Shown piece by piece: positions 7,766-25,379 of a DNA stretch of 32,000 nucleotides. How positions within the stretch are numbered: position 1 is the first letter of the stretch; every line of letters starts with the position of its first letter. Where the stretch lies: NCBI RefSeq assembly GCF_018336915.1, contig NZ_CP064923.1, forward strand, positions 3,180,001-3,212,000, in the 5' to 3' direction. Under the pieces are notes generated by a model, which worked only from the letters and a program-made list of their open reading frames with translations, was not told the DNA's origin and did not search any database. This stretch comes from Acaryochloris marina S15 (GTDB taxonomy: Bacteria > Cyanobacteriota > Cyanobacteriia > Thermosynechococcales > Thermosynechococcaceae). The position numbers and the translations under genes were made by a program.

Positions 7766-8529
7766 GTATTAGTCTATTTGATTTGTTATCATCATCGTGT
7801 AACCCTTGCCATTAATCTGGTGCGAAAAGCTGAAAGGCTGGTCTAGCGATCAGTCTGCTGTTGAATTGACTGACGCCTTTAAAGGAGAAGGTCAATTCAC
7901 TAACCTTAGACCAAGGATTTTTACTGTGTCCCTGTAATTATCATGCTCTTAGCCTTCAAGATTCCGTTTAAGATGCCAGCAGTGAATCAAGGCATGTCTT
8001 GGGAATCAAGATAGTTCTGTTGTCATCGAACTAGTTACTGGACCCACTATCGATTTCACAGCTAACGGTCTGGCTTTGTTGAATGCTAATTAGCGGTTGT
8101 GTGTCACTATTGCAAAGGATTTCTACAAAAGCATAGCGATTATCTAATTTATGTTGTTTATCAGATAAACATTGCCCTCGTAGATATTTGCGTAAGCGGT
8201 CTGGTATTGAAACGAGTTATTGAATTAAAAAATCACTTTAACATACCAACGATGACTAAATATCCACTGGCACTGCTGTTGTTGGCAACCTTTTTTCATC
8301 TTGATCAGTGTCTGGATTACACTGCTGTGGATGTTTTCAGAGTTATTCGGCGTTGAGGAAGATGAGACTATCAAGACTTATTTCTACCTAAAACACTTTA
8401 GAAGTTTATCCTTAAGGGCGTTGATAGTTTCTTCCTGCCCAAGAGGGAAATTTAATTTTATGTTATCGAACTACAGATGATCTTTGATTATAATCTCGTG
8501 ATAGTCCTAAAATCTTAAAAATCATTAAA

Positions 8530-9744: not shown

Positions 9745-10187
9745 TTTTTATTAAATATGCTAACCCAAAATTGCAGCATTAAGGATTTGATGATTGGGGA
9801 AAGTATCTTCCATTTTTCATTAGCGAGACTGGATTTTTAAACTATTAAACTTGAGGCCAAGGATCTTAAATATTAGATATTCAATAGCTTCTAATTCTCT
9901 AAAGAGGCTTTTTTGACATGGTTTAATAGTATTAAAGCTAACCACTCAATAATTCAACAATAAATGAGAAACTTAGTTAAAAAAAGAATATTATGAACGC
10001 AAAAAATTACTTTTTCTGAATCTACTCAGGATTTAACTACTGATAATTATTAAGAACAATAGGAATCACAATACAAACCAACGGATTGGGAGAGAAATGA
10101 ATTCTTTACCCTGACTATCTAAATCAGGGTAGTTGAGTAGCCTCATATAATGTATTTTTTTTAACTAGTCCAGCTTAAGTTAAGATT

Positions 10188-11102
10188 TTAAAGCGAAAAT
10201 CTCTTTAATATTTTTTTGAATTGATTACCCAATATTTCTTTTCTTTCGCAATAAGTAATTCTTCTTGCTATTTCTTCTAGTATTTTTTTTCTTGTACCAG
10301 TGTTTGCATACCTTAGTTTAACTTCTATTGCCTCTGCCTTTGATAAGATTTTATACTTGGGCGAGGTTGTCTTGGCATTATTATGGATCTTTATTTTTGA
10401 TGCAATGATTTCATAGTGATGAAAATTTGTGATTTCAGAAAAACGAAACCATAAATCATAATCCATTTGTAAGTGAAGTGACTCATCTAATTTTCCTGCT
10501 TCAATAAATAAATCATGATTAAAGAATACACCAGCTTGCGGAACATAGTAGCTCCACCAAAAAATATTAGAAAATTTTGTAGAAGGGGGATTAGTTAAAC
10601 AAATAAAATTATTGTCAGGAGTTACCCTCTCTACTGAGCAAGTAATACAACGAATATTTTTTCCTTGTCTAAATTCATTTGCAATATTGGATAGAATATT
10701 AGGACAATAGCAATCATCGCTATTTAGCCAAGCACATATTTTACCTTTAGCTTGATTAAATCCAGAATTAATTGCATGACTTTGACCTTTATCATTTTTG
10801 CTTGTCCAATAAGTAAAAAACTCCTCATATTTATTAATTATTTCAAGTGAATTATCAGTGCTTCCGCCATCCATTAATATATATTCTAAATTCGGATATC
10901 CTTGTAGTAGTACTGAGCGTATTGTCTCTTCAAGAAACTTTCCTTGGTTAAAGCTTGGAGTTATTATGCTAATCTTAGGCCAAGTTAAGCCATCAAGCAT
11001 AATCTCTGGAATGATATTAGATCCCTCTGTCCAAGGCCATCCTTTTTTATTTGGTGGGGGTGGTGGCAAATCTTTTATTGTTAGAAATTTACTAACAGTC
11101 AT
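10188..11102 (-). CDS. Glycosyltransferase family 2 (GT-A)
   Basis: 304 aa. ISIITPSFNQGKFLEETIRSVLLQGYPNLEYILMDGGSTDNS is the classic GT2 N-terminal signature, followed by AWLNSDD (DXD-type). Confidence 0.85.
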   Translation of the reverse strand: MTVSKFLTIKDLPPPPPNKKGWPWTEGSNIIPEIMLDGLTWPKISIITPSFNQGKFLEETIRSVLLQGYPNLEYILMDGGSTDNSLEIINKYEEFFTYWTSKNDKGQSHAINSGFNQAKGKICAWLNSDDCYCPNILSNIANEFRQGKNIRCITCSVERVTPDNNFICLTNPPSTKFSNIFWWSYYVPQAGVFFNHDLFIEAGKLDESLHLQMDYDLWFRFSEITNFHHYEIIASKIKIHNNAKTTSPKYKILSKAEAIEVKLRYANTGTRKKILEEIARRITYCERKEILGNQFKKILKRFSL

Positions 11103-11212
11103 TGGGGTATCTCAGGCCTAACTTATGCATGAAAATTTTAATCAAATAAAATCTTCTATAATAGAGAAAATAAACCAATGATTAAATAGTAAATAGCGAT
11201 AGTTAAGTATTC

Positions 11213-12475
11213 TTATATTGAACTTGAGAGTTGAGTTAACTGATTTGAGTTAGATTTACGGTTGAGTAAAGCTCTATATAAATTTAAATACCTTTTAGCC
11301 TGGAGCTTTGATGAATATTCTTCTAATGCAATTAACCTACAATTTAACCCCATTTCATAGCGTAATTTATCATCTTTAAGTAGCACTTCAATTCCTTTTG
11401 AGAAATCTTCAATATTCTCTTCTTGTGCGAGATATCCTGTAACATTAGGTCTTACCAAATCTTGAACACCTCCAACCCTAAATGATACTGTGGCTGTTCC
11501 ACAAGCCATGCTTTCTTGAAGTACAACTGGTAAGTTATCTGCCCGAGTGGGTAAGAGAAATAAATCCGCAGAGGAATATACTATAGCTTTTATACGGTCA
11601 TTTGTAATATAACCGAGATGGATAGTTTCAATGTCAGTACTTTTATCTAACGCACTATAAGGTTTTCCAAGGGTTATTAGAATGCATTCTTTTTTTAGTT
11701 TTTCAGGCAAAGAGGAAAGAGATTTGATTAATAAATCACCTCCTTTTCTGGGTTCATTTAACTTTACTGCACAAAAAAGTAAAACTTTTTTTTGAAGAGG
11801 TATACCTAGGATACTTCGGGAAAGCTTGTTATCTAATGGTTTGTAAATATCTGTGTCAATACCGTATGGAATATGATGAATCGAGAACTGGTTAAGAATG
11901 CTTTTTTTAGCTTGCTGGGCTAACCATTTACTCGGCGAGACAATTACTAAATCTGAATTTCTATATACCCAATTCTTAAACTTCCATTCCCAGCGGGTAG
12001 TATCTCTTTTGATTGCAGGAATAGTTTCTGGGTATGGACAAGAACCACAGCCATTTTGCCATCTATTGCAGTCAAAGCTATAAGCACAATGCCCAGTAAA
12101 ACTCCACATATCATGAAGTGTAAAGATTGCAGGCTTAGATTTAGTTAGTTTTGGAATTGCCATATAACTAAATCCAGCAAAATGAAGATTATGAAAATTT
12201 AGTAAATCACATTCCTGAAAAAACCTATGTTTAGGGATATCGAAACTACCAAAATAATTTAAATGGTTGAAGCCTAAGCGGGAAGTAAACCTTCCAAGTT
12301 GATTTTCTAACCTATATCGGCGAGGTGATAAATTTACCTCTTCATCATCAGTCTGTAAGTTCCCTACCAAAAGCTTAGAATTTACACCTTGTTTCAACAA
12401 CTCCTTGTGGAGACGATACCCTGCAATTGCAGCTCCACCTGAAATATCCGATTGATTAATATGTAATACTTTCAT
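11213..12475 (-). CDS. Glycosyltransferase family 4 (GT-B) with a Cys-rich N-domain insert
   Basis: 420 aa. MKVLHINQSDISGGAAIAGYRLHKEL, HDMWSFTGHCAYSFDCNRWQNGCGSCP and LPTRADNLPVVLQESMACGTATVSFRVGG. Confidence 0.85.
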   Translation of the reverse strand: MKVLHINQSDISGGAAIAGYRLHKELLKQGVNSKLLVGNLQTDDEEVNLSPRRYRLENQLGRFTSRLGFNHLNYFGSFDIPKHRFFQECDLLNFHNLHFAGFSYMAIPKLTKSKPAIFTLHDMWSFTGHCAYSFDCNRWQNGCGSCPYPETIPAIKRDTTRWEWKFKNWVYRNSDLVIVSPSKWLAQQAKKSILNQFSIHHIPYGIDTDIYKPLDNKLSRSILGIPLQKKVLLFCAVKLNEPRKGGDLLIKSLSSLPEKLKKECILITLGKPYSALDKSTDIETIHLGYITNDRIKAIVYSSADLFLLPTRADNLPVVLQESMACGTATVSFRVGGVQDLVRPNVTGYLAQEENIEDFSKGIEVLLKDDKLRYEMGLNCRLIALEEYSSKLQAKRYLNLYRALLNRKSNSNQLTQLSSSI

Positions 12476-13397: not shown

Positions 13398-14345
13398 CTA
13401 CTCATGGGAAATTATCGACTCAGGTATGATTTTTTCGAATACTTTTCTGAGTAAACGTTTCATAGAGACAGTAATTGATAAAACTCTCGCAGGAAGGAAC
13501 CGTAAGAGGTATTTTTTTGATAAAGCTAACCTCAACATCAGCTTTCCTAACTCCGATTTAGATAGAACTAATTCATTGCCTAATTCTTGTTCTATAATCT
13601 CTCTTTGAACTTTCAAATCGCATTCTGGGAAGCTAAAGAAATTTCCGAATCGAGACTCCCAACTTCGATGAAAATCCGTGTAATCTATATCTTGATAATT
13701 TTGATCAAGTGAATCTGTCGAAAAACGTGGACCCCAAAAAAAGCTCTTCAAACCCATTGCAGATGCGAATAGAAGAGCAGAGGTCATTTGATTTGAAAAA
13801 GCGTAACGCTTACCGTGAACATTGGCTACAAAGCGTTTGAGAAATGCTTTGTCATACAAATCATTGCCATTTGTAACAACTTTAAACCCGTGGCCTCTAA
13901 AGGTATTATCCAGACCTTTTTGCTGGTCGAGATGATACATGCAGACAGTGATAGGGTGATAATTATCTGGCAAATTCTGGAGCATCTCTGCATACAGGTC
14001 AAAATCACATTTCATCTCAATCAGCTTCGATGAATGAGAAGGAAATACAATAGAGCCTTGCTTATTATCTGCTTCAGAATAGTCAAGGAGTTTTAATAGG
14101 TAGAGGAATGGTGCACCAATACTACGCGTCTTTAATGCCCGATATTTTCTTTTATATGTTTCCTCTAAACTTTTCGACCAATACCAATTTTCAGGCGCAT
14201 CATAACGAGCATCATGATCAGTAGCCGTTATTGTCCAACCATGCTGTAATGACATAGGACAAGGCAAATAGGACGGAAACCCCGCATACTCTTTCAGAAT
14301 CTTGCCGATACCGTAATAGGTCACATTGTCATAAAACTCTTGCAT
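13398..14345 (-). CDS. Hypothetical protein; possibly a TagF/KpsS/sialyltransferase-like GT-B-type transferase (unclassified)
   Basis: 315 aa with no family I can name. Loose features are GSIVFPSHSS, NYHPITVCMYHLD (an HP dipeptide) and KRYAFSNQMTSALLFASAMGLKSFFWGP, plus a basic amphipathic C-terminal tail KKYLLRFLPARVLSITVSMKRLLRKVFEKI. It lies 49 nt downstream of the neuB-like gene. Confidence 0.35.
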   Translation of the reverse strand: MQEFYDNVTYYGIGKILKEYAGFPSYLPCPMSLQHGWTITATDHDARYDAPENWYWSKSLEETYKRKYRALKTRSIGAPFLYLLKLLDYSEADNKQGSIVFPSHSSKLIEMKCDFDLYAEMLQNLPDNYHPITVCMYHLDQQKGLDNTFRGHGFKVVTNGNDLYDKAFLKRFVANVHGKRYAFSNQMTSALLFASAMGLKSFFWGPRFSTDSLDQNYQDIDYTDFHRSWESRFGNFFSFPECDLKVQREIIEQELGNELVLSKSELGKLMLRLALSKKYLLRFLPARVLSITVSMKRLLRKVFEKIIPESIISHE

Positions 14346-14394: not shown

Positions 14395-16644
14395 CTAAAA
14401 GCTGTACGATTCCAATCTTCTCAGTGAAATCCAGAACCCTTCGCCCTCATTTTTATGTCCCTGCCATATCTCCGGAATGAAGGAGGCATTCGGGGCGAAT
14501 TGGAGTAAATATTCTTGCAAGGCAAGGAAATCCATTTCACCTTCTCCAATTTGCAAGCCTTCTCCATCCGACCCAGCCGCATCTGCAATATGCAAATGGG
14601 TCGTATGTGGTCCCACTTGCCGAACAAATTCCATGAAGGATAGCTTGTGTTGGTTGCAAGCTAGCTTGGAATGGGAGACATCTAGACAAACACGATATCC
14701 ATGCTGAGCACAGAATGCGGTAATGTCGTGAGCATCGACAAATAAGTTGTGATATCGCTGTCCACCAAAGTGCCATGGGAAAGGTGGCATTGTCTGCGGG
14801 ATGATTTCAACTCCTTCCGCATCAATGGTAGATAAACTATCGAGCAGTATCTGATACAGTTTCTCTAGTTTCGATCGAGGCAGGGGAGCATCGATCGTGA
14901 AGCCTCCAATATTAGTGACAATACAAGGGCGCTGGGCGCGCTTAAAATAGGGCTTCAGTTCACGCGTAATTTCGACGACTCGCTGCAACTCATGAATGGA
15001 TCGTTGTCGATAACTCTCGTCTTCCGAGCATAAGTCAAGCGTATGATCTCTGGCAAATAGCTCAGGACTATGCACAACCAGATCGAGGTCATAGACTTGG
15101 TCGAAGTATTGATGTAGGTCTTCCTCCATGTCTTTGTAGCTCAGGTGGAATTCCAGTAGGTCGGGGTTGGTTTTTTCGAGTATGTTTTTGAAGTCGTGAT
15201 AGCGCACTGGCAAGCCCCAGGGGCGATCGAACTTGTAGTGTTTGGGTTGCACACGATCGTGCTCTAAATCGCTTGGGTAAAAGAAATCACCAGCCTTGAG
15301 ATCACGTTTTGCCTTTTGGCCAATCAACTCATCTTTGCGGTTGGGTTGTAAACCTTTTCCAGGGCTTTTGACTTCCAGCATTCCGGCTGTGATGACCTGC
15401 CCTATCTGGAGATTACAGTTGATGATTAAACTTTTGGCCAAGGTTTCTCGATTCATCAATTCACCCTGACTCAGTCGGCGTTCACTGCTGCTGCCGAGCG
15501 CTGACTCGATCTGACGAATGCCCTGCACCATCGTTTGAAATTCATCGGGCAACAAACTAACCTTATGGTCATTGCCTTCCATAAATTTATCAATCGTGAA
15601 GTGTTTTTCAATCACCTTGGCGCCTTTAGCCACGGCAGCAACTGAAACATGAATATCACGTTCATGGCCTGAATATCCCACGGGGCAATCACCAATTTCT
15701 TTGAGACGTTCCAGGTAGTTGAGATTAACATCTTTAAAGGGCGCTGGGTAAGTAGAGTTGCAATGCAGCAATACATACATCGCACCGAGCTGTTGCAATA
15801 GCCGGACAGATTCGGCAATCTCGGCTTCTGTAGACATCCCCGTCGAGCAAATGAGTGGCTTACCGGTCTTAGCTATCGCTCTGAGTAAATCATGGTTGGT
15901 CAGATCGGCTGAGGCCACTTTATAGCCTGGCATACCATAGTCTTCCAGTATTCCAAGACTTTTTAAATCCCAAGGGGTGCAGAGCGGCAGGATTCCTTGG
16001 GATTTGCAATAGTCGAATACTTCCAGCATTGCCTCAGGGGAAAGCTGAAAGCGTGATAGCAAATCGAGGGTGTACTGTGAACCAAGGTCCTCGCTCGCAT
16101 CATTAGCGTTACCAGCATTACGGTAGAGGGCTTTCATACTACGCAGTTGGAACTTAGCGCAGTCAGCACCCGCTTCAACGGCTAGATCCACCAGTTTCTT
16201 GGCCATATCTAGGTTGCCGTTATGATTGTTACCGATTTCCGCAATGATGAAGGTAGGTGAGGTCGCATCAATTTTGAAGTCACCAATCTGGACACCATCG
16301 GAGCGTTTGCGGGCGACGGCGACAAGGTGACCAGCAGCGTCTACCAGTGGAATAAACTCGACTTCGGCGGAAAATGCCGCCAAGATCTGAGCGGGGGCGG
16401 CATCGGCTGGAACGGACTTATAGTTTTTATTCGAAACCTGATAAACGGATTGATTTAGATCAATATTGTCTTGACTGACTAACCAACGGCGAAAGTCACC
16501 GTCGGTCATAATCCCTTCTAGCGCGCCGGACTCGGTGACGGAAAAGATAATACGACTTTTGTTGTCACTGATTTTCTTGAGCGCGTTAAGAACACTATCT
16601 TCAGCAAAAACGATGTATTTGGCAACGTTTCTGTCAATCAGCAT
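14395..16644 (-). CDS. neuB: Multi-domain nonulosonic-acid synthase: CBS pair + NeuB-type PEP-condensing domain + SAF + C-terminal xylose-isomerase-like TIM-barrel domain
   Basis: 749 aa. aa 1-112 is CBS-like (GALEGIMTDGDFRRWL; FIPLVDAAGHLVAVARK). aa 128-385 is the NeuB core (FIIAEIGNNHNGNLDMAKKLVDLAVEAGADCAKFQ; YKVASADLTNHDLL; LLHCNSTYPAP; GYSGHE). aa 400-460 is SAF-like (LKAGDFFYPSDLE). aa 475-749 is sugar-phosphate isomerase/epimerase-like (VHSPELF...; LDVSHSKL...; HLHIADAAGSDGEGLQIGEGEMDF). Its ATG overlaps the neuA-like stop by 11 nt. Confidence 0.8.
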   Translation of the reverse strand: MLIDRNVAKYIVFAEDSVLNALKKISDNKSRIIFSVTESGALEGIMTDGDFRRWLVSQDNIDLNQSVYQVSNKNYKSVPADAAPAQILAAFSAEVEFIPLVDAAGHLVAVARKRSDGVQIGDFKIDATSPTFIIAEIGNNHNGNLDMAKKLVDLAVEAGADCAKFQLRSMKALYRNAGNANDASEDLGSQYTLDLLSRFQLSPEAMLEVFDYCKSQGILPLCTPWDLKSLGILEDYGMPGYKVASADLTNHDLLRAIAKTGKPLICSTGMSTEAEIAESVRLLQQLGAMYVLLHCNSTYPAPFKDVNLNYLERLKEIGDCPVGYSGHERDIHVSVAAVAKGAKVIEKHFTIDKFMEGNDHKVSLLPDEFQTMVQGIRQIESALGSSSERRLSQGELMNRETLAKSLIINCNLQIGQVITAGMLEVKSPGKGLQPNRKDELIGQKAKRDLKAGDFFYPSDLEHDRVQPKHYKFDRPWGLPVRYHDFKNILEKTNPDLLEFHLSYKDMEEDLHQYFDQVYDLDLVVHSPELFARDHTLDLCSEDESYRQRSIHELQRVVEITRELKPYFKRAQRPCIVTNIGGFTIDAPLPRSKLEKLYQILLDSLSTIDAEGVEIIPQTMPPFPWHFGGQRYHNLFVDAHDITAFCAQHGYRVCLDVSHSKLACNQHKLSFMEFVRQVGPHTTHLHIADAAGSDGEGLQIGEGEMDFLALQEYLLQFAPNASFIPEIWQGHKNEGEGFWISLRRLESYSF

Positions 16645-17347
16645 GGGACACCACCTGTTGCTTGAGCAAGAATTCAGCGATTTCGAAGTCTAAAGGAGAA
16701 TCAATTTCGTGAGCCGCAGCCTCACTCATCGGGAAAAGCGATATTTTACCGCCTAAGCGATTGCCGAGTTCTTTCAAGACCCAAGGCTTAAAAATATAGA
16801 TTGAACCATTTTCAACATACTGCGGATTCATGTCTTGCCGGCGAGGGCGATGGCGATAGTCGTAGTTGATGGCCTTAGCCACACCATTAGCTTCTTCCCA
16901 GAGAAAACGATGCGAGGGGGAAACTGATACGAGAGAATCAGCATCTTCTGACTGAAGTTTTTGGATAGCCCGATCGATGTCAATCCCAGTGCGAATTGGT
17001 GAAGTACACTGGAGGAAAATGACCAAATCAGGCTTAACTAAAGATTCTTCGATGACACTAAGTGAGTGAATCAAGGCAGATTCCGAAGATGCCGTATCAC
17101 TTGCCAAGTAATCAGGGCGCTGGATAGTATTAACGCCATATTCCTGAGAAATAGCTGCAATCTCAATATCATCAGTCGAAACATAAACTTGTCCAGCAAG
17201 GTTAGACTCGAGAGCATCGAGTATACTGTGGGCAATCAAAGGCTTCTTATCCAGTAAGTTAACGTTTTTTCGGGGAACCCCTTTAGAACCTCCACGAGCT
17301 GGAATGACTACGATATTTCCCCGGAATTTAAAATTGGGCAAGTGCAT
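16634..17347 (-). CDS. neuA: Acylneuraminate (CMP-nonulosonate) cytidylyltransferase
   Basis: 237 aa. VVIPARGGSKGVPRKNVNLLDKKPLIAHSI is the NeuA/CMP-sugar synthetase N-terminal motif, followed by FLQCTSPIR. Translationally coupled to the neuB-like gene. Confidence 0.85.
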   Translation of the reverse strand: MHLPNFKFRGNIVVIPARGGSKGVPRKNVNLLDKKPLIAHSILDALESNLAGQVYVSTDDIEIAAISQEYGVNTIQRPDYLASDTASSESALIHSLSVIEESLVKPDLVIFLQCTSPIRTGIDIDRAIQKLQSEDADSLVSVSPSHRFLWEEANGVAKAINYDYRHRPRRQDMNPQYVENGSIYIFKPWVLKELGNRLGGKISLFPMSEAAAHEIDSPLDFEIAEFLLKQQVVSHAD

Positions 17348-17373: not shown

Positions 17374-19437
17374 TTACAAAATTTTGAGAATTTTCTTGAT
17401 ATCAGCCAGATTTCTCAATGTAATTTCCCATAACCCTTCTTGAGCACGCTTAACTTGATCTTCTATCTCATCAATCTTTTGTCCAATGCTAGTCATATCC
17501 GTGACCAGAGTAGACCGCAAGTCTTCACCTTGAATTTCAGCGCCCCATTCTTGATGATGAATATCTTCCAAGAAGAAGCGTAGCTTATCGTGACTAATCA
17601 AACTATAAATTGCTTTTCCAAGTCCAAAGGGAATCATTTGAGCATGGCCTCTCATCCCGAAAGCCAAAGATATTTTACGATATTCACGAATAATCACATC
17701 TGGTGGTGCACGATGGAGATTAATTTGTTCAAGTTCAAGTCCGCGAGCTCTGAACCATGCATAAGCTTCAGCATCTGTCCGCATATGCATGAACATTTTT
17801 GGACACCACCCCTTGTTCTTTAATTCCAAAAGTGCATCAGCTACTGACCACAGAATTTCATCTTCGCGCTTGCCAAACCTAAGGTGGTGCCTATCGAACG
17901 CGATATTTACAGCAATTACATTACCCGGCTCTCTGTCATGAGTTTCCACCTTGGGATAAAATTTTTGCAGGAATGTGGTCGCACATGGTTGAAAGGTAAT
18001 CTTCGAATGCAGCTCTGGTGGAAGATATTGCTTAAGAGCTTCCATACTTCCTCGATTCCGAATCCCAAAAAAGGCACTTTTCCGAACCAGTTTTTCTACA
18101 CTTTCTCTGAATTTAGGTGAGAATTCAGGCTGACCTCTGAAGCGGTTGTAACCAACGGCAAACACAATAATTGGCACTTGAATTTTCTCTAACAGTTCGA
18201 TAGGGCAAGCCCATTGCCATCCAGACAATTCATTAAGGTTAGAGTCAGAAAGGAAAAGGCCTCCACCGCCAATTAGAACAGCATCTTGCGTATTGATTAT
18301 ATCAATGGTTTGTTCCGTAACTTTTCCTCTTAAGGGAATCAGCTCAAACTGAGTTGGCGATACATATTGCTGGAATAGCCACCTAATAGCAGGAAATAAA
18401 AGCGTATCCCCAGCATTATCATTAGCGTGTAAGCCAATATGAGCAATTTTAAGTCGAATATTCTCCGTCTCTACTGGTGTAACCGCAACATTTTCAGCAT
18501 TACATAGATCTTGGGGTGTCTTATCACGCCAGGACTTCAATTGATTCTTTAGTCGACGCTTAGCTGCTACAAGGTATTGCTTAGCAGTTCGAGATCTTTT
18601 GCTCGAACTGATATCATTTGCATCAACTACTATTTTCTTAATTCGTCGTGGATCATCCGACAGGGTAGATTGCAATGCTTTAGCTTTCTTTTGCGCTATA
18701 ATCCATAGCCCATTTCCATGCCATCCACTCTCTATTGGCTCAAAACCATTTTTGAGCATGAATGATCTTAAAACCGTTTCAGAAAATGTGTTGATGTGAA
18801 CATCCCAGAAGAAGAAATCTATACTTTCTCCATACCAACGATCAATACTTGGACACTCTATATAGAGCAAACCATCATTCTGCAACAGATCATAAATTCT
18901 ACTTAGAAAGGAATTTGGATCTGGCACATGCTCAATAACATGGAAGCTAGAAATTACATCGAATCTGTCTTCTGAAAGATAGTATTCCAACGAAGTATTC
19001 TCTATTGAAAGACCATACCTCTGCTCAACAACACTTGTATAAACAGAATCCGGCTCTAGCCCGGAGACCTTCCAACCAGCTCCCTTCATCAATCTGAGGA
19101 AGCTGGCTGTGCCACAACCAATCTCTAAGATGTTTTTTTGATCATTAGGGCTATATAATTCTGATTTCAAATGATTTTGCAGCGTTTGAAATCTAGAGAA
19201 TGCCAGTGCTTCACACTGCTTGAACTTCGCGTCATCAGGCTTGTGTAAACTTCTCTCATTGCGGGAGAAACCACCACCTGCGTATAAATTTTCCAATTCA
19301 GTAGCGCTTGGCCTGGGTAGAACAAAAACGAATCCACACTGCTCGCAAATGTAATTTTTGACATTTTTGACATGTCTCCCCTTACCGTAAATAAGACTAC
19401 GCTTATCACTTCCACAGAGCGCGCAATTATATGCCAT
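17374..19437 (-). CDS. Bifunctional fusion: Zn-ribbon + class I SAM methyltransferase (N) and polysaccharide pyruvyl transferase (C)
   Basis: N-terminus is MAYNCALCGS...YICEQCGF (4 Cys), then ILEIGCGTASFLRLMKGAGWKVSGLEPD (SAM motif I) and FDVISSFHVIEHVPDP. The C-half has KIAHIGLHANDNAGDTLLFPAIRWLF, DAVLIGGGGLF and LAFGMRGHAQMIPFGLGKAIYSLISHDK, typical of the CsaB/WcaK-type pyruvyl transferase family. I place the start at ATG 19437, which has GGAG 8 nt upstream. The track start at 19524 would overlap wzt by 50 nt and add a hydrophobic, unsupported extension. Confidence 0.75.
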   Translation of the reverse strand: MAYNCALCGSDKRSLIYGKGRHVKNVKNYICEQCGFVFVLPRPSATELENLYAGGGFSRNERSLHKPDDAKFKQCEALAFSRFQTLQNHLKSELYSPNDQKNILEIGCGTASFLRLMKGAGWKVSGLEPDSVYTSVVEQRYGLSIENTSLEYYLSEDRFDVISSFHVIEHVPDPNSFLSRIYDLLQNDGLLYIECPSIDRWYGESIDFFFWDVHINTFSETVLRSFMLKNGFEPIESGWHGNGLWIIAQKKAKALQSTLSDDPRRIKKIVVDANDISSSKRSRTAKQYLVAAKRRLKNQLKSWRDKTPQDLCNAENVAVTPVETENIRLKIAHIGLHANDNAGDTLLFPAIRWLFQQYVSPTQFELIPLRGKVTEQTIDIINTQDAVLIGGGGLFLSDSNLNELSGWQWACPIELLEKIQVPIIVFAVGYNRFRGQPEFSPKFRESVEKLVRKSAFFGIRNRGSMEALKQYLPPELHSKITFQPCATTFLQKFYPKVETHDREPGNVIAVNIAFDRHHLRFGKREDEILWSVADALLELKNKGWCPKMFMHMRTDAEAYAWFRARGLELEQINLHRAPPDVIIREYRKISLAFGMRGHAQMIPFGLGKAIYSLISHDKLRFFLEDIHHQEWGAEIQGEDLRSTLVTDMTSIGQKIDEIEDQVKRAQEGLWEITLRNLADIKKILKIL

Positions 19438-19474
19438 TTTTAGCTCCAAAAATAATGAGAAAACTACGAGAAGG

Positions 19475-20773
19475 CTAGGCAGAAGAGATATCCCAAGAAT
19501 ATGGCTGATAAAAAGCAGCGCCACTCAGATTGAAAAACGTATCTACGCTAAAATCATATGCTTCTACGAAATCTAAAGTGTTTAGAGCTCCTTGGCGAAC
19601 GACAAGCTTCATCATATAGTTACCAGGTTTGAAGCAGACCTGCGGAAAAATAACAGCTATTTTGTTCATCCCCTTACTCAATTTGATTTCTTTACCATCA
19701 TTTTGGTTGCTAATAAACAAAACTGAGTTTCCAGCGCTTAATTTCTCATAAAAATTAAGCCTCAAATTAATGTTGCTTAAATCAGTTTTCGCGTTACATA
19801 GAATAGATATTCTTGCAGATTCGCCACAATACAAAGTCTCAGAAGAATCATTTCCTTCAGATTTTATTTCAATAGATTCAATGGATAAGGTTGAAGATTT
19901 TTTCAGAAAATCTTCAACCTTATTTGTATTGTGTACAATCCTTCTATCTCCATGCTGCTGAGAATCCATGAAGATAAGATCTCTCTCATACTGAAGCACA
20001 ATTTCTCTAGCTTCTCCAACGTTTAGAAGCTTACCCCGATTTAAGTAAGCCACTTGTTCACAAACTCCCGCAATTGTTTGAGAGTTGTGACTGACCAAAA
20101 TAAATACGGTATCACTGTTTCTTAATTCTCCCAGTTTTTTATGACATTTAGCTTGGAAGCAAATATCACCTACCGCAAGAACCTCATCGACAAGAAGAAT
20201 TTCTGGCTCGGTAAAAATTGCACTGGCAAAGCCTAAACGTGCAGCCATCCCAGAACTATAACTCTGGACAGGCGCATCAATTGCATCCCCAATCTCCGCA
20301 AACGCCACTACCTCCTCAAACCGTTCATCGATCTCCTGTTTCGACAAGCCCAAAATTGCCATATTCACATAAATATTTTCCCGCCCCGTCAAAATTGGGT
20401 TAAACCCCGCCCCCAAGGCAATCAACGGCGCCACCCGTCCATTCACCTCCACCGAACCATGATCTGGCCGGATCAACCCACTAATAATCCGCAACAGCGT
20501 CGTCTTCCCTGCACCATTGGCACCCACCAGCCCCAGCGCTTCCCCCCGCTTTAGCTCAAAGCTCACATTGTTTAACGCCCAAAACTCCCCCTTACGCAGC
20601 TCTACATCTTGCCGCTGTGCGCCAAACACCTCTCCAGCAATATCCTGCACCCCATATAGCAAAGACCGCTTTAAATCACGGCAAAACCGTTTAGAAACAT
20701 TCTTCACGGACAAAACAACGCTGCCATCCTTAGACGACTGATGCATAATAGGCTCTAGATAGGTTTGTGTCAT
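19475..20773 (-). CDS. wzt: Polysaccharide ABC exporter ATP-binding protein (Wzt/KpsT type) with an extra C-terminal domain of about 170 aa
   Basis: Walker A GLVGANGAGKTTLL, signature YSSGMAARLGFA, Walker B ILLVDEVLAVGD. Residues about 265-433 extend beyond the NBD (…IESIEIKSEGNDSSETLYCGESARISILCNA…GNYMMKLVVRQG…), like the carbohydrate-binding Wzt C-domain. The start is either ATG 20773 or the adjacent GTG 20776. Confidence 0.85.
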   Translation of the reverse strand: MTQTYLEPIMHQSSKDGSVVLSVKNVSKRFCRDLKRSLLYGVQDIAGEVFGAQRQDVELRKGEFWALNNVSFELKRGEALGLVGANGAGKTTLLRIISGLIRPDHGSVEVNGRVAPLIALGAGFNPILTGRENIYVNMAILGLSKQEIDERFEEVVAFAEIGDAIDAPVQSYSSGMAARLGFASAIFTEPEILLVDEVLAVGDICFQAKCHKKLGELRNSDTVFILVSHNSQTIAGVCEQVAYLNRGKLLNVGEAREIVLQYERDLIFMDSQQHGDRRIVHNTNKVEDFLKKSSTLSIESIEIKSEGNDSSETLYCGESARISILCNAKTDLSNINLRLNFYEKLSAGNSVLFISNQNDGKEIKLSKGMNKIAVIFPQVCFKPGNYMMKLVVRQGALNTLDFVEAYDFSVDTFFNLSGAAFYQPYSWDISSA

Positions 20774-20792
20774 CACTTAAATAGGGTGAAAG

Positions 20793-21019: not shown

Positions 21020-21880
21020 TTACGAGCTCATCCGCTCCACCATAAATGGCATTGCCAGGCGATACAGCATCCAGCCCAGCAGGAACAGCCCTAAGGCCAG
21101 TCCACTGGCCCACCAAAAGCCTATAACATCCGTCAATACTCCGGTTGTCGCTAGTTCCCGTGTTGTTACCAGCAATGGTGTTACCGGATTTAGCCGCACA
21201 ATGCTCCCAAATAAACCACTTTGCGGCACTTCGTAAATCACTGGTGTCAGCAGCAGCCAAGGTGCCACAATCATCGGTAATACCTTCTGCACATCTCCAT
21301 ACAGCGCCCCCAGTGGCGCTAACACCAAGCCAATCCCTGTCCCCAGCATCACCAGATGCACCAGCGCTACTGGCACCAACAGCACCGCCCAAGTCACTGG
21401 CATCTGAAACCAAACAAATAGACCCACAATCAAAATCAGCTTGATACCAAAGTTAAACGCCACCTCCCCCAGTTTCGCCAGCACCAATGCCTCACGCGGG
21501 AAATTGATTTTCGCCAACATCGCCTTTGCTGCATTGACTGCCATAATTGGCCCATTCAGCGCCTCTACAAAGGTCTGCCAAAGGGCCATACTGAACATGA
21601 CATAGGCCGGGTAGGGCAACTCCGTTTCACCCAGGTTCACTACCCCCGTATTGCGAGCCATAACCAATCCAAACGCTGTCACCACTGGCGGCATAAAAGC
21701 CCAGAAAATTCCCAGTAAAGACTGCCGATATTGAGCGCTGATATCCCGCACCAACAATCGCCAAGCCAGTTCCCGAGAAGCCAGCAAGTCACGGCCCATT
21801 TCCTGCAACATTTGCAGCGGGTGACGAATGCGGCTTTCAGGTGTGTAGATCACTCGCTTAGGAGCATGATATTGATTCAT
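21020..21880 (-). CDS. wzm: Polysaccharide ABC exporter permease (ABC-2 type, Wzm/KpsM)
   Basis: 286 aa. LAWRLLVRDISAQYRQSLLGIFWAFMPPVV is the ABC-2 N-terminal motif, followed by about 6 hydrophobic segments. It sits next to the wzt-type ATPase. GC-rich (about 60% on sampled lines). Confidence 0.85.
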   Translation of the reverse strand: MNQYHAPKRVIYTPESRIRHPLQMLQEMGRDLLASRELAWRLLVRDISAQYRQSLLGIFWAFMPPVVTAFGLVMARNTGVVNLGETELPYPAYVMFSMALWQTFVEALNGPIMAVNAAKAMLAKINFPREALVLAKLGEVAFNFGIKLILIVGLFVWFQMPVTWAVLLVPVALVHLVMLGTGIGLVLAPLGALYGDVQKVLPMIVAPWLLLTPVIYEVPQSGLFGSIVRLNPVTPLLVTTRELATTGVLTDVIGFWWASGLALGLFLLGWMLYRLAMPFMVERMSS

Positions 21881-22045: not shown

Positions 22046-23428
22046 CTAAGACTCTGTTTCAGGGGCAGGATGAGAGTCAGTGTTCAGGATTTGTCGATTC
22101 AGTTTCTGTTTACGCAGTTCTCGGTTGCGTAAAGATTGATCCACAACTTTGAGGTATTTCTTGGCAATAATTTGGGGTGTAAAATGCTCTTCCAAATAAC
22201 GATGGGCATTTTCACCCATCGCTTGGGCCGCTTTATGATCCTTCTGTAAATACAACAGAAAATCTGCTAACTCCTTGCCATCTCCATTCTCAATCGTTAT
22301 CCCACAATTGGCATCGGCAATTAAATCATTCAGATAGGAACTCTTAGGACATACGGCCACAATAGGACGTCCTGATGATAACGCAGAATATACTTTACTG
22401 GGTGCAACTAAATCCTGCATTCCTGGACTTACGCTGACTAAAGAAATATTTCCTGCCGTCAAAGAATAGGGCAACACCTCCTTATCCTGATAGGGTAAGA
22501 ACTGGCAATTTTTCAAACCACGGTCTTGTACCTCAGCCATCACATCAGATCGTTTTGCTCCACCCCCAATAAACACAAATTGAATCGGCTCATCCTTTAA
22601 CAAGATCATGGCTTCCAACAATGTGTCCATATCGTGGCAGCGGCCCATATTACCGGAGTAAATGACCGTAAAAATATCTACTAGGTGATATTTCCAGGCA
22701 AACCAATTTTTAGTTTTTGGAATAGGCACAATCTGTTTGGGATCTGCCCAACTATGAATCACTGAAATTTTCCCCCGCACTCTTGGACATTGCCGAATCA
22801 CCCGTCGCTTCATCGCCCCACTCAAAACGATGATCCCACTGGCATTTTTCCAAACGTAATAGTTCACCAATCGCCAAGCTTTCGCTAAAACATGATTGTG
22901 GTTAACAACATTAAGCTCAACTGCTATATCGGGATAGAGATCGTAGACCAAACAAATATAGGATTTGCCTAAGATCAAAGAAGCCAAGTATCCCAATACA
23001 GGCAAAAAAGGTGGAGCCGTTGTCAGCAAAATCACATCATACTTTCGTGCAGACCGGAGCAGATGTAACCCCGCCCGCAAAAAAAACAAAAGACCATTAA
23101 TAGCTTTACCCCGAATTTGTTTCGGCCAAAGTTGGGCGGTCCTAGAACGCTTCACCCGAACCTGATGCCGATCTTCTTTTAGAGGAGATTCTCGTTGGAC
23201 TGTAAAGGCGTATCCTGGCTGACCACTAAATACACTGACCTGTATATCTTGTTGGGATAACTGTTGGGTGATCTCATCAATCAGTTGTCCAGTCGGGGCA
23301 TAATCCGGGGGAAAGAATTGCGTAAACACCCCTAGATGTGTGTCTTTAGTAACTAGTCCCAATGTCTCAGTAGTATTGCCTTCAAGATCAAACTGCACAT
23401 CTGTTGATAAGAAATAGTTACGTGTCAT
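22046..23428 (-). CDS. Glycosyltransferase family 4, WcaI-like
   Basis: GVFTQFFPPDYAPTGQLIDEITQQL, VIYSGNMGRCHDMDTLLEA and VSPGMQDLVAPSKVYSALSSGRPIVAV. The track start at 23440 is a TTG. The first ATG is at 23428 (MTRNYFL...), and I cannot decide between them. Confidence 0.8.
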   Translation of the reverse strand: MTRNYFLSTDVQFDLEGNTTETLGLVTKDTHLGVFTQFFPPDYAPTGQLIDEITQQLSQQDIQVSVFSGQPGYAFTVQRESPLKEDRHQVRVKRSRTAQLWPKQIRGKAINGLLFFLRAGLHLLRSARKYDVILLTTAPPFLPVLGYLASLILGKSYICLVYDLYPDIAVELNVVNHNHVLAKAWRLVNYYVWKNASGIIVLSGAMKRRVIRQCPRVRGKISVIHSWADPKQIVPIPKTKNWFAWKYHLVDIFTVIYSGNMGRCHDMDTLLEAMILLKDEPIQFVFIGGGAKRSDVMAEVQDRGLKNCQFLPYQDKEVLPYSLTAGNISLVSVSPGMQDLVAPSKVYSALSSGRPIVAVCPKSSYLNDLIADANCGITIENGDGKELADFLLYLQKDHKAAQAMGENAHRYLEEHFTPQIIAKKYLKVVDQSLRNRELRKQKLNRQILNTDSHPAPETES

Positions 23429-23505
23429 AGGGGCAAACAAGTAGGAGAGTAAGCAAACCGATGTGGTTCAGTAACATTGGGGAAAATGAAGATGTTCGAA
23501 TCTAA

Positions 23506-23872: not shown

Positions 23873-25379
23873 CTGACTTTTCCTGCTAAGTCTTCCAGTG
23901 CTTAGTGGGTGGTATTTGTAGCCCTTAGTCTCAGCCTTGGTTAAAGTAAGTGCAGTGATACCCAGAGAGCATCTAATGAGTCCAGAGCGTTATGAGCAAA
24001 ATTTTGGAACCTGTGAGTTGGGTGATCAACGATTGAATCACCGTGCATTCAGTATCGGTCGTTCTCTGAGCGAGAAATTTGGTCAAGCCCTATCGACCGT
24101 ATTTGAGACTGGGAAAGCCCTCAAACGGTCTTACGAGTTTTCGCAAATGTGAAAACCAGCTTCGCTAAGATTATTTCTCCTCATTGTTCTATGACCGCTT
24201 GTAGCGTATCGTCGCAAGAGATGACCTTGAGTGTTGGCGACACCACCTTCCTCGACTATGAAGGTATCAAGCAGAAGCGCCAAGGCTATGGTCCCCAAGG
24301 CAGAGGGGGGAATGGATTATTACTCCATAGTGCCTTAGCCGTTGACCCTGAGCAGGGCCAACCCTTGGGTTTGTTATGGCAAAAAGTGTGGAATCGTCAG
24401 CATCGTCCCAAGCCCCCGAAGAATGAAACGTCCCGACAAAAGAAGAAACGTCAGACCAAAGCGCGTAAAACTGCTCGGGAGCGTCTATTTGAGGAAAAAG
24501 AATCCTATCGTTGGGTGGAAGCACTGCACGCAGTGGAGAAAGCTGTGGGTCCTTCAACTCGTATCATTCATGTCTTTGACCGAGAAGGAGACATTGCTGA
24601 AGTCTTTGAACGACTCAATACCCTAGACAATACGGGACTCGTGGTTAGAGCCTCTCATAATCGTTGTCTAGAACACGATCCTAATCGCCTGTGGGAAAAG
24701 CTGGAAGCCCAGAGTGTTCAGTTCGAGTATGAGATTGACTTACCTAAAACGAAAGGCCGGAGTGCGCGCACGGCTAAGTTAGCTGTGAGATGTTGTCTTG
24801 TTGAACTTCAAAGACCAGCCCGACTAGCTGCCAGTCAACCCCTTCAGGTTTACGCTGTCTATGCAACAGAAGTAGCCCCACCTGAAGGGGAAGAACCAGT
24901 GTCATGGATGTTGCTCACTAGTGAAGTCGTGACAACAGTAGAAATGGCCCAAACCATTTTGCGTTGGTACACCTACCGTTGGCGAGTTGAGGAGTATCAC
25001 AAAGTTCTAAAATCGGGCACTCAGGTGGAGCGATATCGGTTGGCATCTGAGGGAATGAAAACCTTATTGGGATTCCTGTGTGTCACTGCTGTAGAGCTGT
25101 TGCGTGTGACTTATTTAGAACGAACACAACCTCAATTACCTGCACAAGATGTCCTCACGCCTTTACAGATCAAAGTTCTCATTGCCAAGACCCCGAAGGT
25201 ACCTAAAACATTAACGGTGGCATGGGCTGTTCAAGCAGTTGCACGACTCGGGGGATATCTGGAGCATCGTCGAAACACACCGATTGGAATTCAAGTCCTG
25301 TGGAAAGGGTGGGCGAAGCTCAATGACCTGATTGAAGGCTGGCTGTTAGCTACCCAGGAGACTTAGCAGGAAAAGTCAG
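23873..25379 (+). mobile_element. IS4-family (IS50/Tn5-like) insertion sequence, 1507 bp, with 20-bp perfect IRs and a 9-10 bp target-site duplication
   Basis: IR-L is CTGACTTTTCCTGCTAAGTC (23873-23892). IR-R is GACTTAGCAGGAAAAGTCAG (25360-25379), its exact reverse complement. Flanking direct repeat GTTTAGTAAT lies at 23863-23872 and 25380-25389. The IR begins CTGACT, as does the Tn5 outside end. Confidence 0.92.
23976..25366 (+). pseudogene. Tn5-like DDE transposase interrupted by a -1 frameshift near codon 58-60
   Basis: ORF 23937-24152 (…FGTCELGDQRLNHRAFSIGRSL…KRSYEFSQM*) matches the Tn5 Tnp N-terminal DNA-binding region (ALGDPRRTARL…GAYRF). ORF 24149-25366 carries the catalytic core: VGDTTFLDY, HVFDREGDIAEVF, YTYRWRVEEYHKVLKSGTQVE and ARLGGYLEHRR…LWKGW. 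The two frames join if the run GAGTTTTCG (24135-24143) had one more T (…YEFFANVKTSF…). The total would be about 476 aa, the size of Tn5 Tnp. Confidence 0.85.

Follow-up and report, generated by a model that had tools for sequence, protein, structure and literature searches.

A methyltransferase–pyruvyltransferase fusion beside an extended Wzt in Acaryochloris marina S15 and its possible role in glycan capping

Overall organization of the operon

The 32,000-nucleotide stretch of the Acaryochloris marina S15 genome analyzed here (the window) holds an ABC-transporter-dependent surface-glycan operon in which a methyltransferase (MT) fused to a pyruvyltransferase (PT) is encoded between an extended Wzt and two nonulosonic acid (NulO) genes. 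Judging from sequence and predicted structure, we tentatively propose that the fusion makes a methylated and pyruvylated NulO-associated cap, which would be read by the C-terminal domain of Wzt.

All genes of the operon lie on the minus strand, in the order GT4, Wzm, Wzt (a nucleotide-binding domain, NBD, plus a carbohydrate-binding domain, CBD), MT::PT fusion, CMP-NulO synthetase, NulO synthase and a 315-aa protein, followed by many glycosyltransferases. The first gene of the block encodes a GT4 glycosyltransferase (22046–23440; Pfam Glycos_transf_1 and Glyco_transf_4), which has an orthologue upstream of wzm in the Umezakia loci L081 and L084. Wzm (21020–21880; Pfam ABC2_membrane, 37 bits) is the ABC-2 permease for glycan export and has homologues adjoining Wzt in L001–L004 and L081–L090. 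The 315-aa protein (13398–14345) occupies the slot where related loci have an MptE-like candidate NulO transferase, and its homologues come after NeuA in L014, L020 and L073. It matches no Pfam or NCBIfam model, and hhalign shows no relationship with the MptE-like clusters.

The CMP-nonulosonate synthetase-like cytidylyltransferase (NeuA-like; 16634–17347; Pfam CTP_transf_3, 69.7 bits) begins 26 nt past the end of the fusion gene. Its closest NCBIfam model is PseF, under the cut-off of that model. The long form of NeuA carries a HAD domain of the Kdn-9-P phosphatase type, which scores 175.8 bits, short of the 180-bit cut-off. The NulO synthase (14395–16644) is a multidomain protein with CBS, NeuB, SAF and xylose-isomerase-like TIM barrel domains (Pfam CBS, NeuB at 288 bits, SAF and AP_endonuc_2), and the same NeuB fusion of 748–749 aa is found in L001–L004, L081, L084, L085 and L087.

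Wzt and its C-terminal domain

The longest open reading frame of wzt (19475–20776, minus strand) starts at a GTG and encodes 433 aa. The real start is likely the ATG at 20746, giving a 423-aa protein (19475–20746) that agrees with the database protein P0121 (423 aa, 100% identical to the window Wzt). The NBD (residues 1–264; 19955–20746) matches Pfam ABC_tran with 86.8 bits, and its Foldseek matches include WzmWzt, TagH and TarH. In the AF2 model (pLDDT 81.5), the NBD is followed by a disordered linker (residues 265–282) and an all-beta domain (residues 287–422).

This C-terminal beta-sandwich of the carbohydrate-binding type (residues 287–423; 19478–19888) matches Pfam Wzt_C at residues 296–412 with 31.7 bits, barely over the gathering score of 30.4. 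The top Foldseek matches for the whole protein are full-length Aquifex aeolicus WzmWzt chains with the carbohydrate-binding domain (E 1e-36, about 410 columns), and the sequence profile aligns with 7k2t up to residue 393. The first-pass annotation, made from the DNA letters, had described an extra domain of about 170 aa and considered that it might lack a carbohydrate-binding fold. The domain is present, with a size of about 160 aa, and the Wzt_C match, the all-beta model and the A. aeolicus CBD match all point to such a fold. At the NBD–CBD linker, the gene also contains a perfect 17-bp inverted repeat with a 5-nt loop (19885–19923), which occurs once in the window.

Structure of the fusion protein

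The fusion gene (17374–19437, minus strand; 687 aa) starts at an ATG at 19437 with GGAG upstream. It directly follows wzt, as noted previously, with a gap of 37 nt (not 38) from the Wzt stop codon. The AF2 model has a pLDDT of 88 and a pTM of 0.88, and both halves retain invariant cofactor motifs. The N-terminus (residues 1–45; 19303–19437) forms a Zn ribbon whose four cysteines (C5, C8, C31 and C34) are invariant across 25 homologues. The class I SAM-dependent methyltransferase domain (residues 97–250; 18688–19149) is supported by PDB profile matches and matches Methyltransf_23 at residues 97–236 (4e-22) as well as Methyltransf_11, _12 and _25; G107, G126, E128, P129 and D130 are invariant in the same comparison. 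The leading Foldseek matches of this part, and its best PDB fold matches, are the sugar C-methyltransferases TcaB9, KijD1 and MtmC, in which a class I SAM domain likewise comes after an N-terminal four-cysteine Zn ribbon. However, these enzymes act on dTDP-4-keto sugars via a C-terminal domain that is missing from the fusion, and the identity is about 15%.

A basic linker (residues 263–328; 18454–18651) connects the two halves, and the stretch quoted in the first-pass annotation lies at residues 279–306. Its two short helices (residues 263–282 and 285–304) are of low confidence in the AF2 model, and residues 302–316 have pLDDT values below 50. Among homologues, the linker is hypervariable in length (0–70 aa) and nearly gone in those from Paenibacillus. 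By AF2 and a heptad scan, there is no extended coiled coil in the fusion or in any protein of the operon. The analogy to WbdD drawn previously fails on these two points.

The PT half (residues 329–687; 17377–18453) is a PS_pyruv_trans domain with a C-terminal helix. It matches Pfam PF04230 with 62 bits (1e-16, extending to residue 608), and Foldseek indicates a GT-B-like fold. Its invariant motifs are H333, N341-x-G343-D344, G390–G393, R460-N461 and R596-G597-H598. The last resembles the PEP-contacting R337-L338-H339 of Pvg1p, a likeness at the level of the motif only.

The PT half was also considered as a CsaB orthologue, and this assignment was rejected (it scores 29 bits with the CsaB model, whose cut-off is 213). 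The idea carried over from the first-pass annotation, that the pyruvylated product is a ligand of SLH-domain envelope proteins in a CsaB-like tethering system, therefore appears very improbable. It is true that SLH proteins are anchored by pyruvylated polymers and that cyanobacteria often have CsaB-like enzymes (PMC6801904), but much of the fusion family is found in Bacteroidota, and the known SLH ligand is the 4,6-Pyr-ManNAc of a peptidoglycan-linked polymer rather than an ABC-exported, NulO-linked glycan.

The fusion family and its genomic context

More than 100 full-length fusion homologues from Cyanobacteria, Bacteroidota, Bacillota and Chloroflexi are among the matches listed, and about 45 of the top 150 representative clusters (50% identity) are full-length fusions. 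The protein annotated in A. marina S15, on a contig of 5.88 Mb, is 100% identical. Because the full-length architecture recurs this widely, the fusion is genuine and misassembly is excluded.

The constant partner of the fusion across phyla is the NeuB/NeuA pair for a nonulosonic acid, mostly of the Kdn type, a key context that had been overlooked in favor of Wzt. In 44 of the 53 loci with full flanks (83%), NeuA or NeuB is encoded within 5 kb, as it is in 27/30 of the fused members. Across 80 loci, the gap to NulO genes is 300 nt or less in 46, and a NeuA-like cytidylyltransferase neighbors the fusion in 58. Wzt occurs in only about 20–30% of the family loci, and a Wzx flippase is as common. 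Nine of the 30 fused members have a Wzx-like flippase and 12 have no visible exporter, indicating that capping for Wzt is not the general role of the family. Among the members with a visible export route, half are in Wzx-flippase loci, and in these a Wzt checkpoint cannot apply. Where the ABC transporter is adjacent, however, Wzt is extended (405–462 aa) in 12 of 13 cases, and Wzt_C exceeds the gathering cut-off in L008, L015, L027 and L019.

The tight, often translational coupling with neuB and neuA would also fit an enzyme that modifies NulO, free or as CMP-NulO, ahead of transfer instead of capping the polymer, as would the structural proximity of the MT half to the nucleotide-sugar methyltransferases described above. 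This seems unlikely, given that the fusion lacks the TcaB9-type C-terminal sugar-nucleotide domain (Pfam, AF2) and that characterized CsaB depends on an acceptor linked to a lipid rather than on a free or nucleotide sugar (PMC6801904). Moreover, a Rosetta-stone protein (P0258) joins Maf_flag10_N and an MptE-like domain (148 bits) to this PT subfamily, which suggests action after transfer.

The almost obligatory linkage to CMP-NulO synthesis genes, the GT-B-like fold and the lack of a recognizable sialyltransferase in the window, with the 315-aa protein unassigned, could alternatively mean that the PS_pyruv_trans-like half is itself a CMP-NulO glycosyltransferase, installing the residue that the MT half then methylates. 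We regard this as improbable: the PF04230 match exceeds the cut-off, the PT half has the Pvg1p-like motif, and many loci have separate candidate NulO transferases (MptE-like or polyST). The GT8::MT::PT fusions (L004, P0329 and P0334) hint at a possible hexose acceptor in place of NulO, which counts against the capping model proposed here.

Co-variation of the Wzt C-domain with downstream cassettes

In cyanobacteria, the slot after wzt carries alternative cassettes that combine an ulosonic acid (Kdo or NulO) with a modifying enzyme. MT-PT and NulO genes occupy it in L081, L087 and L001–L003; FrhB, PT and NulO genes in L084; a Zn-ribbon MT, a GT8-like protein and KdsD/B/A/C in L088 and L090; a 2OG oxygenase and Kds genes in L089; and AcT with Methyltransf_21 in L083. 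The first-pass annotation had suggested checking whether the Wzt C-domain co-varies with the fusion. With NBD identity controlled, C-domain identity was higher within a cassette type by 8.2 points for the a priori types (permutation p = 0.006) and by 16.6 points for refined types (permutation p = 2e-4), in a small sample of 15 cyanobacterial Wzt proteins with a known downstream cassette, whose loci are not phylogenetically independent. At long distance, C-domain and PT identities are uncoupled: in L003 and L004, the PT is 58–61% identical to that of the window and the CBD about 28%. In L043, which has no MT, CBD identity is nevertheless about 40%.

Two Umezakia ovalisporum strains are 99.4–99.6% identical over the locus except for one swapped block, which comprises the C-terminus of Wzt together with MT-PT in one strain and with FrhB and an unrelated pyruvyltransferase in the other. 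The breakpoints lie at about codon 206 of Wzt and codon 30 of NeuA. Across the swap, CBD identity is 31%, whereas Wzc, GT4, Wzm, NeuA and NeuB are 98–99.8% identical. A further difference between the strains lies downstream of neuB, and the swap can therefore not be attributed to MT-PT alone.

These data bear on the main alternative, which is that the fusion is an ordinary decoration enzyme placing methyl and pyruvate groups within the repeat unit, on internal or side-chain residues, with the Wzt C-domain recognizing another feature or merely tethering the polymer and the adjacency to wzt reflecting operon packing. We consider this less probable but well worth weighing. Repeat units are the targets of most known pyruvyltransferases (PMC6801904), the family is as frequent in Wzx-flippase loci, and the long-distance uncoupling fits as well. 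The window holds about nine single-domain glycosyltransferases, which suggest a complex repeat unit in which both groups could be internal, and the coiled-coil ruler, a hallmark of capped systems, is missing while the linker is variable. Against decoration, the CBD co-varies with cassette type and lies within the Umezakia swap, the adjacent Wzt is almost always extended, and the same slot carries cassettes for Kdo, a proven terminator that is read by Wzt CBMs (PMC11231755). The interpretation in the first-pass annotation is supported only in part.

Comparison with known systems

Among the nearest parallels for cap-read export are the Kdo-capped O antigens of Klebsiella pneumoniae O12 (WbbB) and O4 (ORF7, GT137), whose caps are recognized by the Wzt CBM (PMC11231755). 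Both pathways are ABC-transporter-dependent with a CBD at the Wzt C-terminus, an acidic 2-ulosonic acid at the non-reducing end would be the terminator here as in Klebsiella, and the cyanobacterial sister loci hold Kdo genes in the same slot. The window differs in its predicted nine-carbon nonulosonic acid with methyl and pyruvate transferases, and in a terminator-side enzyme without a coiled-coil ruler. The WbdD–Wzt systems of E. coli O9a/O8 and Klebsiella O3/O5 likewise place a two-domain enzyme with a SAM methyltransferase beside a Wzt with a serotype-specific C-domain, and the joint exchange of C-domain and modifying enzyme between variants is seen in Umezakia. WbdD, however, includes a kinase and a long coiled coil, and its C-terminus recruits the membrane and polymerase, whereas the fusion has a pyruvyltransferase and a short variable linker with no coiled coil.

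We found no described case of a fused methyl/pyruvyl terminator in the searchable literature, in line with the first-pass annotation. Terminal pyruvate itself is already known from WbbZ of Klebsiella O1b, and pyruvate terminators combined with a CBM have been proposed (PMC10629545). WbbZ uses PEP to pyruvylate the non-reducing end of an O antigen that leaves the cell by an ABC transporter, where terminal pyruvate ends O1 polymerization in vitro; unlike the fusion, it is stand-alone and has a galactose acceptor, a Wzt without CBM and cap-independent export (PMC10629545). There are chemical precedents for such modifications: 7,9-pyruvylated Kdn, within the chain, in the teichulosonic acid of Promicromonospora citrea, and methyl plus pyruvate on one terminal sugar, 4,6-Pyr-3-O-Me-Glc, in mycobacterial glycolipids (PMC6801904). 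They are precedents at the level of chemistry, not of named enzymes, and are not known to be linked to a Wzt checkpoint.

Proposed cap formation and export

In the capping model that we tentatively favor, transfer in the cytoplasm would place a NulO residue on the lipid-linked glycan, at its non-reducing end. With PEP as donor, the PT half would add a pyruvate ketal to this residue or its neighbor, and the MT half would use SAM to O-methylate a hydroxyl that is still free. Such a cap, acidic and blocked, would be non-extendable and could serve as the ligand of the Wzt C-domain, which would license export. Because the coiled-coil ruler is absent, length is not set in the manner of WbdD, and the cap would more likely signal completion. 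Where the enzyme occurs in Wzx-type loci of other phyla, it would only decorate a terminal or side-chain residue.

Domain architecture and predicted fold of the fusion

The methyltransferase-pyruvyltransferase (MT-PT) fusion and the extended Wzt beside it, both noted in the first-pass annotation, were confirmed at the same positions. The fusion gene, on the minus strand, runs from an ATG at 19437 to 17374 and encodes 687 aa; the ATG lies 37 nt past the Wzt stop codon, with GGAG ahead of it. Pfam searches assigned Methyltransf_23 to aa 97–236 (4e-22) and PS_pyruv_trans (PF04230; 1e-16, 62.2 bits versus a cut-off of 25.3) to the PT half. The ribbon cysteines (C5, C8, C31, and C34), the SAM motif (G107, G126, and E128-P129-D130), and the PT motifs (H333, N341-x-G343-D344, G390-G393, R460-N461, and R596-G597-H598) are invariant among 25 homologues. 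R596-G597-H598 can be likened, by motif resemblance alone, to the PEP-binding Arg-x-His of Pvg1p (R337-L338-H339).

The AlphaFold2 (AF2) model of the fusion (pLDDT 88, pTM 0.88) consists, in order, of the Zn ribbon, a class I MT domain, two helices of low confidence (263–282 and 285–304), a GT-B-like PT domain, and a packed C-terminal helix. The two-Rossmann GT-B-like fold of the PT domain is indicated by both the AF2 model and its Foldseek matches. The nearest structures to the MT half are the Zn-ribbon sugar methyltransferases TcaB9, KijD1, and MtmC, and a profile search of the PDB with the whole fusion was dominated by methyltransferases. By sequence, the PT half matched no PDB entry, including no pyruvyltransferase; its PF04230 score is well above the cut-off, and we consider it very improbable that this half is a misnamed nonulosonic acid (NulO) transferase. 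Orthology to CsaB was rejected, as the PT half scored 29 bits on the CsaB model (TIGR03609) against a cut-off of 213.1. The suggestion in the first-pass annotation that the pyruvylated product serves as an SLH ligand is left without support by this score, and we regard such a role as extremely improbable.

The coiled-coil terminators WbdD, WbbB, ORF7-O4, and ORF6-O7 carry a catalytic module that adds a terminal methyl, phosphomethyl, or Kdo group. In WbdD-type terminators, a ruler separates the terminator from the polymerase or the membrane, whereas the fusion lacks such a ruler. An extended coiled-coil ruler is described as a characteristic marker of capped systems (PMC11231755). A crude heptad scan of the fusion and of every other operon protein detected no long coiled coil, and the only linker helices in the AF2 model are the two mentioned, of approximately 20 aa each. 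Within the family (25 homologues), conservation is lowest in the linker, which is 0–70 aa long and nearly absent in Paenibacillus and in the database protein P0042. A WbdD-like ruler was therefore rejected, and the parallel with WbdD drawn in the first-pass annotation does not hold for a fusion whose basic, helix-prone linker is hypervariable or nearly absent in homologues. With no ruler, a cap would signal that the chain is complete and would not measure its length; the enzyme format lacks a supposed hallmark of capped systems.

Operon organization and the Wzt/Wzm exporter

All genes in this region are on the minus strand, with intergenic gaps of 37, 26, −11, and 49 nt. A GT4 glycosyltransferase gene (22046..23440, Pfam) and the gene for the ABC-2 permease Wzm (21020..21880; ABC2_membrane, 37 bits) lie upstream of the Wzt ORF (19475..20776), which Wzm adjoins; the 100% identical database protein (P0121, 423 aa) begins at the ATG at 20746. 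Scans for operon promoters and terminators gave counts equal to the shuffle expectation.

The Wzt ATPase domain (NBD) scored 86.8 bits for ABC_tran, and Wzt_C was matched at aa 296–412 with 31.7 bits, against a curated cut-off of 30.4. The AF2 model of Wzt, built with 40 homologues as input (pLDDT 81.5), has an NBD at aa 1–264, a disordered linker at 265–282, and an all-beta domain at 287–422. The top PDB matches by Foldseek are full-length chains of Aquifex aeolicus WzmWzt including the carbohydrate-binding domain (CBD; E 1e-36, about 410 columns, 31% identity); TagH and TarH were also matched. The Wzt sequence profile aligned 7k2t as far as residue 393. The extra domain reported in the first-pass annotation is thus a Wzt_C-type beta-sandwich. 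The homologues of Wzt were gathered with the full-length query; a query with the C-domain only returned none, owing to a word-index limit. An exact-sequence look-up of the window Wzm found no second Acaryochloris variant of the locus, the sole match being a 2.9 kb contig.

Several features of the surrounding DNA were also observed. A perfect 17-bp inverted repeat with a 5-nt loop (19885–19923), which occurs once in the window, lies within the wzt coding sequence; it falls exactly in the disordered NBD-CBD linker, encodes NKVEDFLKKSSTLS, and is accompanied by a nested imperfect repeat (19818–19835/19923–19940). The repeat could be the scar of a recombination event or of a MITE; it could also form a structure in the mRNA where the two domains join. 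A Tn5-like DDE transposase gene (DDE_Tnp_1 and Dimer_Tnp_Tn5; 24149–25366, plus strand) lies between the GT4-Wzm-Wzt block and the gene for a Wzc-like tyrosine-kinase co-polymerase (27422–29632); in Umezakia, the block and the Wzc-like gene adjoin directly. The G+C content is 0.27–0.36 in the glycosyltransferase-rich part (about 4000–12000) and 0.38–0.51 in the Wzm/Wzt/NeuB part, and the low values fit a horizontally exchanged, serotype-specific region. At the far cluster end, a 404-aa membrane protein (783–1997, minus strand) has a sub-threshold Wzy_C/O-antigen-ligase match (28.5 bits versus 31.7) and could be the ligase attaching the exported glycan.

Distribution of the fusion family

In A. 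marina S15, the identical protein is annotated merely as "methyltransferase domain-containing protein". Of 578 homologues scored, more than 100 are full-length MT+PT proteins, found in Cyanobacteria (Stanieria, Nostoc PCC 7524, Pleurocapsales, and Umezakia), in Paenibacillus/Cohnella, in Bacteroidota (Olleya, Flavivirga, Reichenbachiella, and Saprospiraceae), and in Chloroflexi. At E ≤ 1e-30, an exhaustive search of 1.84 billion representatives yielded 326 clusters (50% identity). Full-length fusions make up about 45 of the top 150 clusters, and the others are stand-alone PTs of the same subfamily or PTs joined to other modules. With this many full-length homologues and clusters, a misassembled gene pair, the alternative raised in the first-pass annotation, was rejected: the fusion recurs as one protein across phyla.

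Linkage to nonulosonic acid genes

The ORFs of 80 loci of relatives, with 10 kb flanks each, were annotated with the window proteins. In 44 (83%) of the 53 loci having at least 5 kb on both sides, NeuA (CMP-NulO synthetase) and/or NeuB (NulO synthase) is encoded within 5 kb, as compared with 10 loci for Wzt and 10 for a Wzx-like flippase. The 30 fused members among these 53 have NeuA/B in 27 cases, Wzt in 9, and a flippase in 9, with Wzt and flippase together in none. A NeuA or NeuB gene is at most 300 nt away in 46 of the 80 loci. Modification of the sugar at the precursor level by the fusion is an alternative reading of this proximity to synthesis genes; we judge it improbable.

The NeuB and NeuA genes of the window are adjacent, with an 11-nt overlap, and were recognized by Pfam (NeuB, 288 bits; CTP_transf_3, 69.7 bits). 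They scored 334 on the NeuB_NnaB model (cut-off 400) and 116 on the PseF model (cut-off 206), respectively, both below the level that would assign a specific NulO (Neu5Ac, Pse, Leg, or Kdn). The NeuB of most phyla has only about 290 aa, and their NeuA is joined to a HAD domain; in cyanobacteria, including the window, a short NeuA accompanies a NeuB fusion of 749 aa. The NeuA-fused HAD domain of the other phyla scored 175.8 bits, close to the cut-off of 180 for Kdn-9-phosphate phosphatase, which indicates a Kdn-type pathway there. The window NeuB fusion (14395–16644, minus strand) comprises a CBS pair, NeuB, SAF, and a xylose-isomerase-like TIM barrel (AP_endonuc_2), and is kept at 748–749 aa in several cyanobacteria. 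The TIM barrel may act as a sugar isomerase/epimerase or take the place of a phosphatase.

An MptE-like (Maf/sialyltransferase-like) protein joins the NulO module in many loci. In a 1018-aa metagenomic representative (P0258), a module of the Maf type, which transfers NulO to flagellin (Maf_flag10_N and an MptE-like domain, 148 bits), is fused to the same PT subfamily. This provides a Rosetta-stone link between NulO transfer and PT, and raises the possibility that flagellin or other proteins carry pyruvylated nonulosonic acids. PT is also fused to GT8 (L004, P0329, and P0334), so a hexose acceptor is still possible. Chemical precedents are known, namely 7,9-pyruvylated Kdn in Promicromonospora citrea and the terminal 4,6-Pyr-3-O-Me-Glc of mycobacterial glycolipids (PMC6801904). 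Downstream of the window NeuB, a 315-aa protein with no family match (13398..14345, minus strand) showed no relation to MptE-like or sialyltransferase-like proteins by hhalign. In many of the Bacteroidota loci L029–L037, L040, L041, L046, L047, L054, and L056 (Cytophagales and others), a module of MptE-like protein, NeuB, NeuA-HAD, and MT-PT stands beside an 800-aa YfhO-like membrane protein, and several of these loci also have a Wzx-like flippase. This arrangement suggests that the same modified NulO is handled there by a different route with no ABC transporter, which might be glycosylation of proteins or lipids.

Cassettes adjacent to wzt in cyanobacteria

Like the coiled-coil terminators, the fusion is encoded with a CBD-bearing Wzt, in the window and in 12 of the 13 loci with an adjacent Wzt. 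An extended Wzt of 405–462 aa is present in 12 of the 13 loci with an adjacent ABC transporter, with Wzt_C above its cut-off in Flavobacteriaceae, Cyclobacteriaceae, and Halothece examples. In the neighborhoods of cyanobacterial homologues of the window Wzt, the slot directly 3′ of wzt holds alternative cassettes. MT-PT with NeuA and NeuB-TIM occurs in L081, L087, and L001–L003, and probably in L086. L084 has an FrhB-like protein and an unrelated PS_pyruv_trans with NeuA and NeuB-TIM, and L085 has a GT8-like protein, NeuA, NeuB-TIM, a polysialyltransferase-like protein, GT2, and PT. L088 and L090 hold a Zn-ribbon MT (25% identical to the fusion MT), a GT8-like protein, and genes of the KdsD/KdsB/KdsA/KdsC set; L089 holds a 2OG oxygenase and Kds genes, and L083 an acetyltransferase and Methyltransf_21. 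Neither the window nor any of the 80 loci encodes a homologue of the GT8-like protein of L088 and L085. A Kdo or NulO pathway with modifying enzymes beside a CBD-bearing Wzt is thus a recurring cyanobacterial design, comparable to the Kdo terminators that have been proven for Klebsiella O4 and O12 (PMC11231755).

The Kdo genes directly follow wzt as KdsD, KdsB, KdsA, and KdsC in L088 (5482–8213) and L089 (10249–13284), and as KdsD and KdsB only in L090 (4464–6214). Kdo is reported as absent from cyanobacterial LPS (PMC4515613). The Kdo of these three loci is probably destined for the exported glycan, where it perhaps serves as a cap.

Co-variation of the Wzt C-domain with the cassette

The window NBD resembles those of Kdo-type and Methyltransf_21-type Wzt (77–78% identity) no less than those of the MT-PT type (70–77%). 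For the window C-domain, identity is 35–42% with most MT-PT and PT types and about 27% with the GT8-linked L003 and L004; it is 34% with the NulO and PT locus L085 and 21–31% with most other types. One-to-one tracking of CBD identity by PT identity was rejected, and an analysis by cassette type was used in its place. C-domain identity was regressed on NBD identity and a same-cassette indicator, with label permutation, over 15 loci, a small and phylogenetically non-independent set. The same-cassette effect with a-priori types was +8.2 points (p 0.006, 15 related loci), so that the co-variation check proposed in the first-pass annotation came out positive at the level of cassette type. Treating L003 and L004 as their own type, for the GT8 beside or fused to their MT-PT, gave +16.6 points (p 2e-4) for the same related loci, a refinement chosen after seeing the matrix. 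This co-variation is indirect evidence for a C-domain that binds a cap at the non-reducing terminus and is needed for export.

Cap-dependent export through the Wzt CBD is understood from a small number of prototypes in enterobacteria, whose caps are methyl, phosphomethyl, or Kdo groups. The locus and its relatives point to a further cap chemistry, a nine-carbon acidic sugar with pyruvate and methyl groups. For the window lineage we favor, with a little less than even confidence, a fusion that finishes a cap associated with a terminal NulO; this cap would be acidic, would carry methyl and pyruvate groups, and would be read by the Wzt C-domain before export. An adjacent Wzt is found in only about 30% of fused family members. 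Ordinary internal decoration by the fusion, the main rival, is less probable; against it, the C-domain co-varies with cassette type. Beyond the window lineage, a portable cross-phylum cassette of NulO synthase, CMP-NulO synthetase, NulO transferase, and MT-PT might make a pyruvylated O-methylated NulO cap that the cyanobacterial CBD reads as an export password, with reader and modifiers swapped together between strains in a ruler-free checkpoint; this wider proposal is put forward tentatively.

The O-antigen or EPS-like glycans of cyanobacteria bear on resistance to grazing and phages, on flocculation, and on biotechnology. If correct, these readings would offer a first functional handle on cyanobacterial control of O-antigen or EPS-like glycan export, and a substrate class, Kdn-type sugars, for the large uncharacterized PT subfamily. 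Terminal pyruvate on an ABC-exported O antigen is already known (WbbZ), and for Burkholderia vietnamiensis and Pseudomonas protegens there are proposals of pyruvate terminators coupled to a carbohydrate-binding module (PMC10629545). The searchable literature contained no description of the MT-PT fusion, its Kdn-type gene linkage, or NulO caps in Wzt-CBD systems.

Two strains of Umezakia ovalisporum (GCA_001458455.1 and GCA_016124525.1) provide a natural domain-swap experiment in which the hypothesis is directly testable. Their DNA shows 99.4% identity as far as Wzt codon ~206, and 99.6% identity over the stretch that runs from NeuA codon ~30 through neuB. Between these breakpoints, the modifying genes are MT-PT in one strain and FrhB and PT in the other, and the Wzt C-terminus is exchanged as well, leaving the C-domains 31% identical. 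The strains differ after neuB as well, indicating a swap that takes in the serotype-specific part as a whole, of which the fusion is one element. MurA and MurB turn an enolpyruvyl group into a lactyl group. In the second strain (L084, 8484–11314), where the FrhB/FdhB-like gene (F420-dependent oxidoreductase beta-subunit-like) and the unrelated PS_pyruv_trans stand in place of MT-PT, this pair could by analogy reduce an enolpyruvyl group to a lactyl group.
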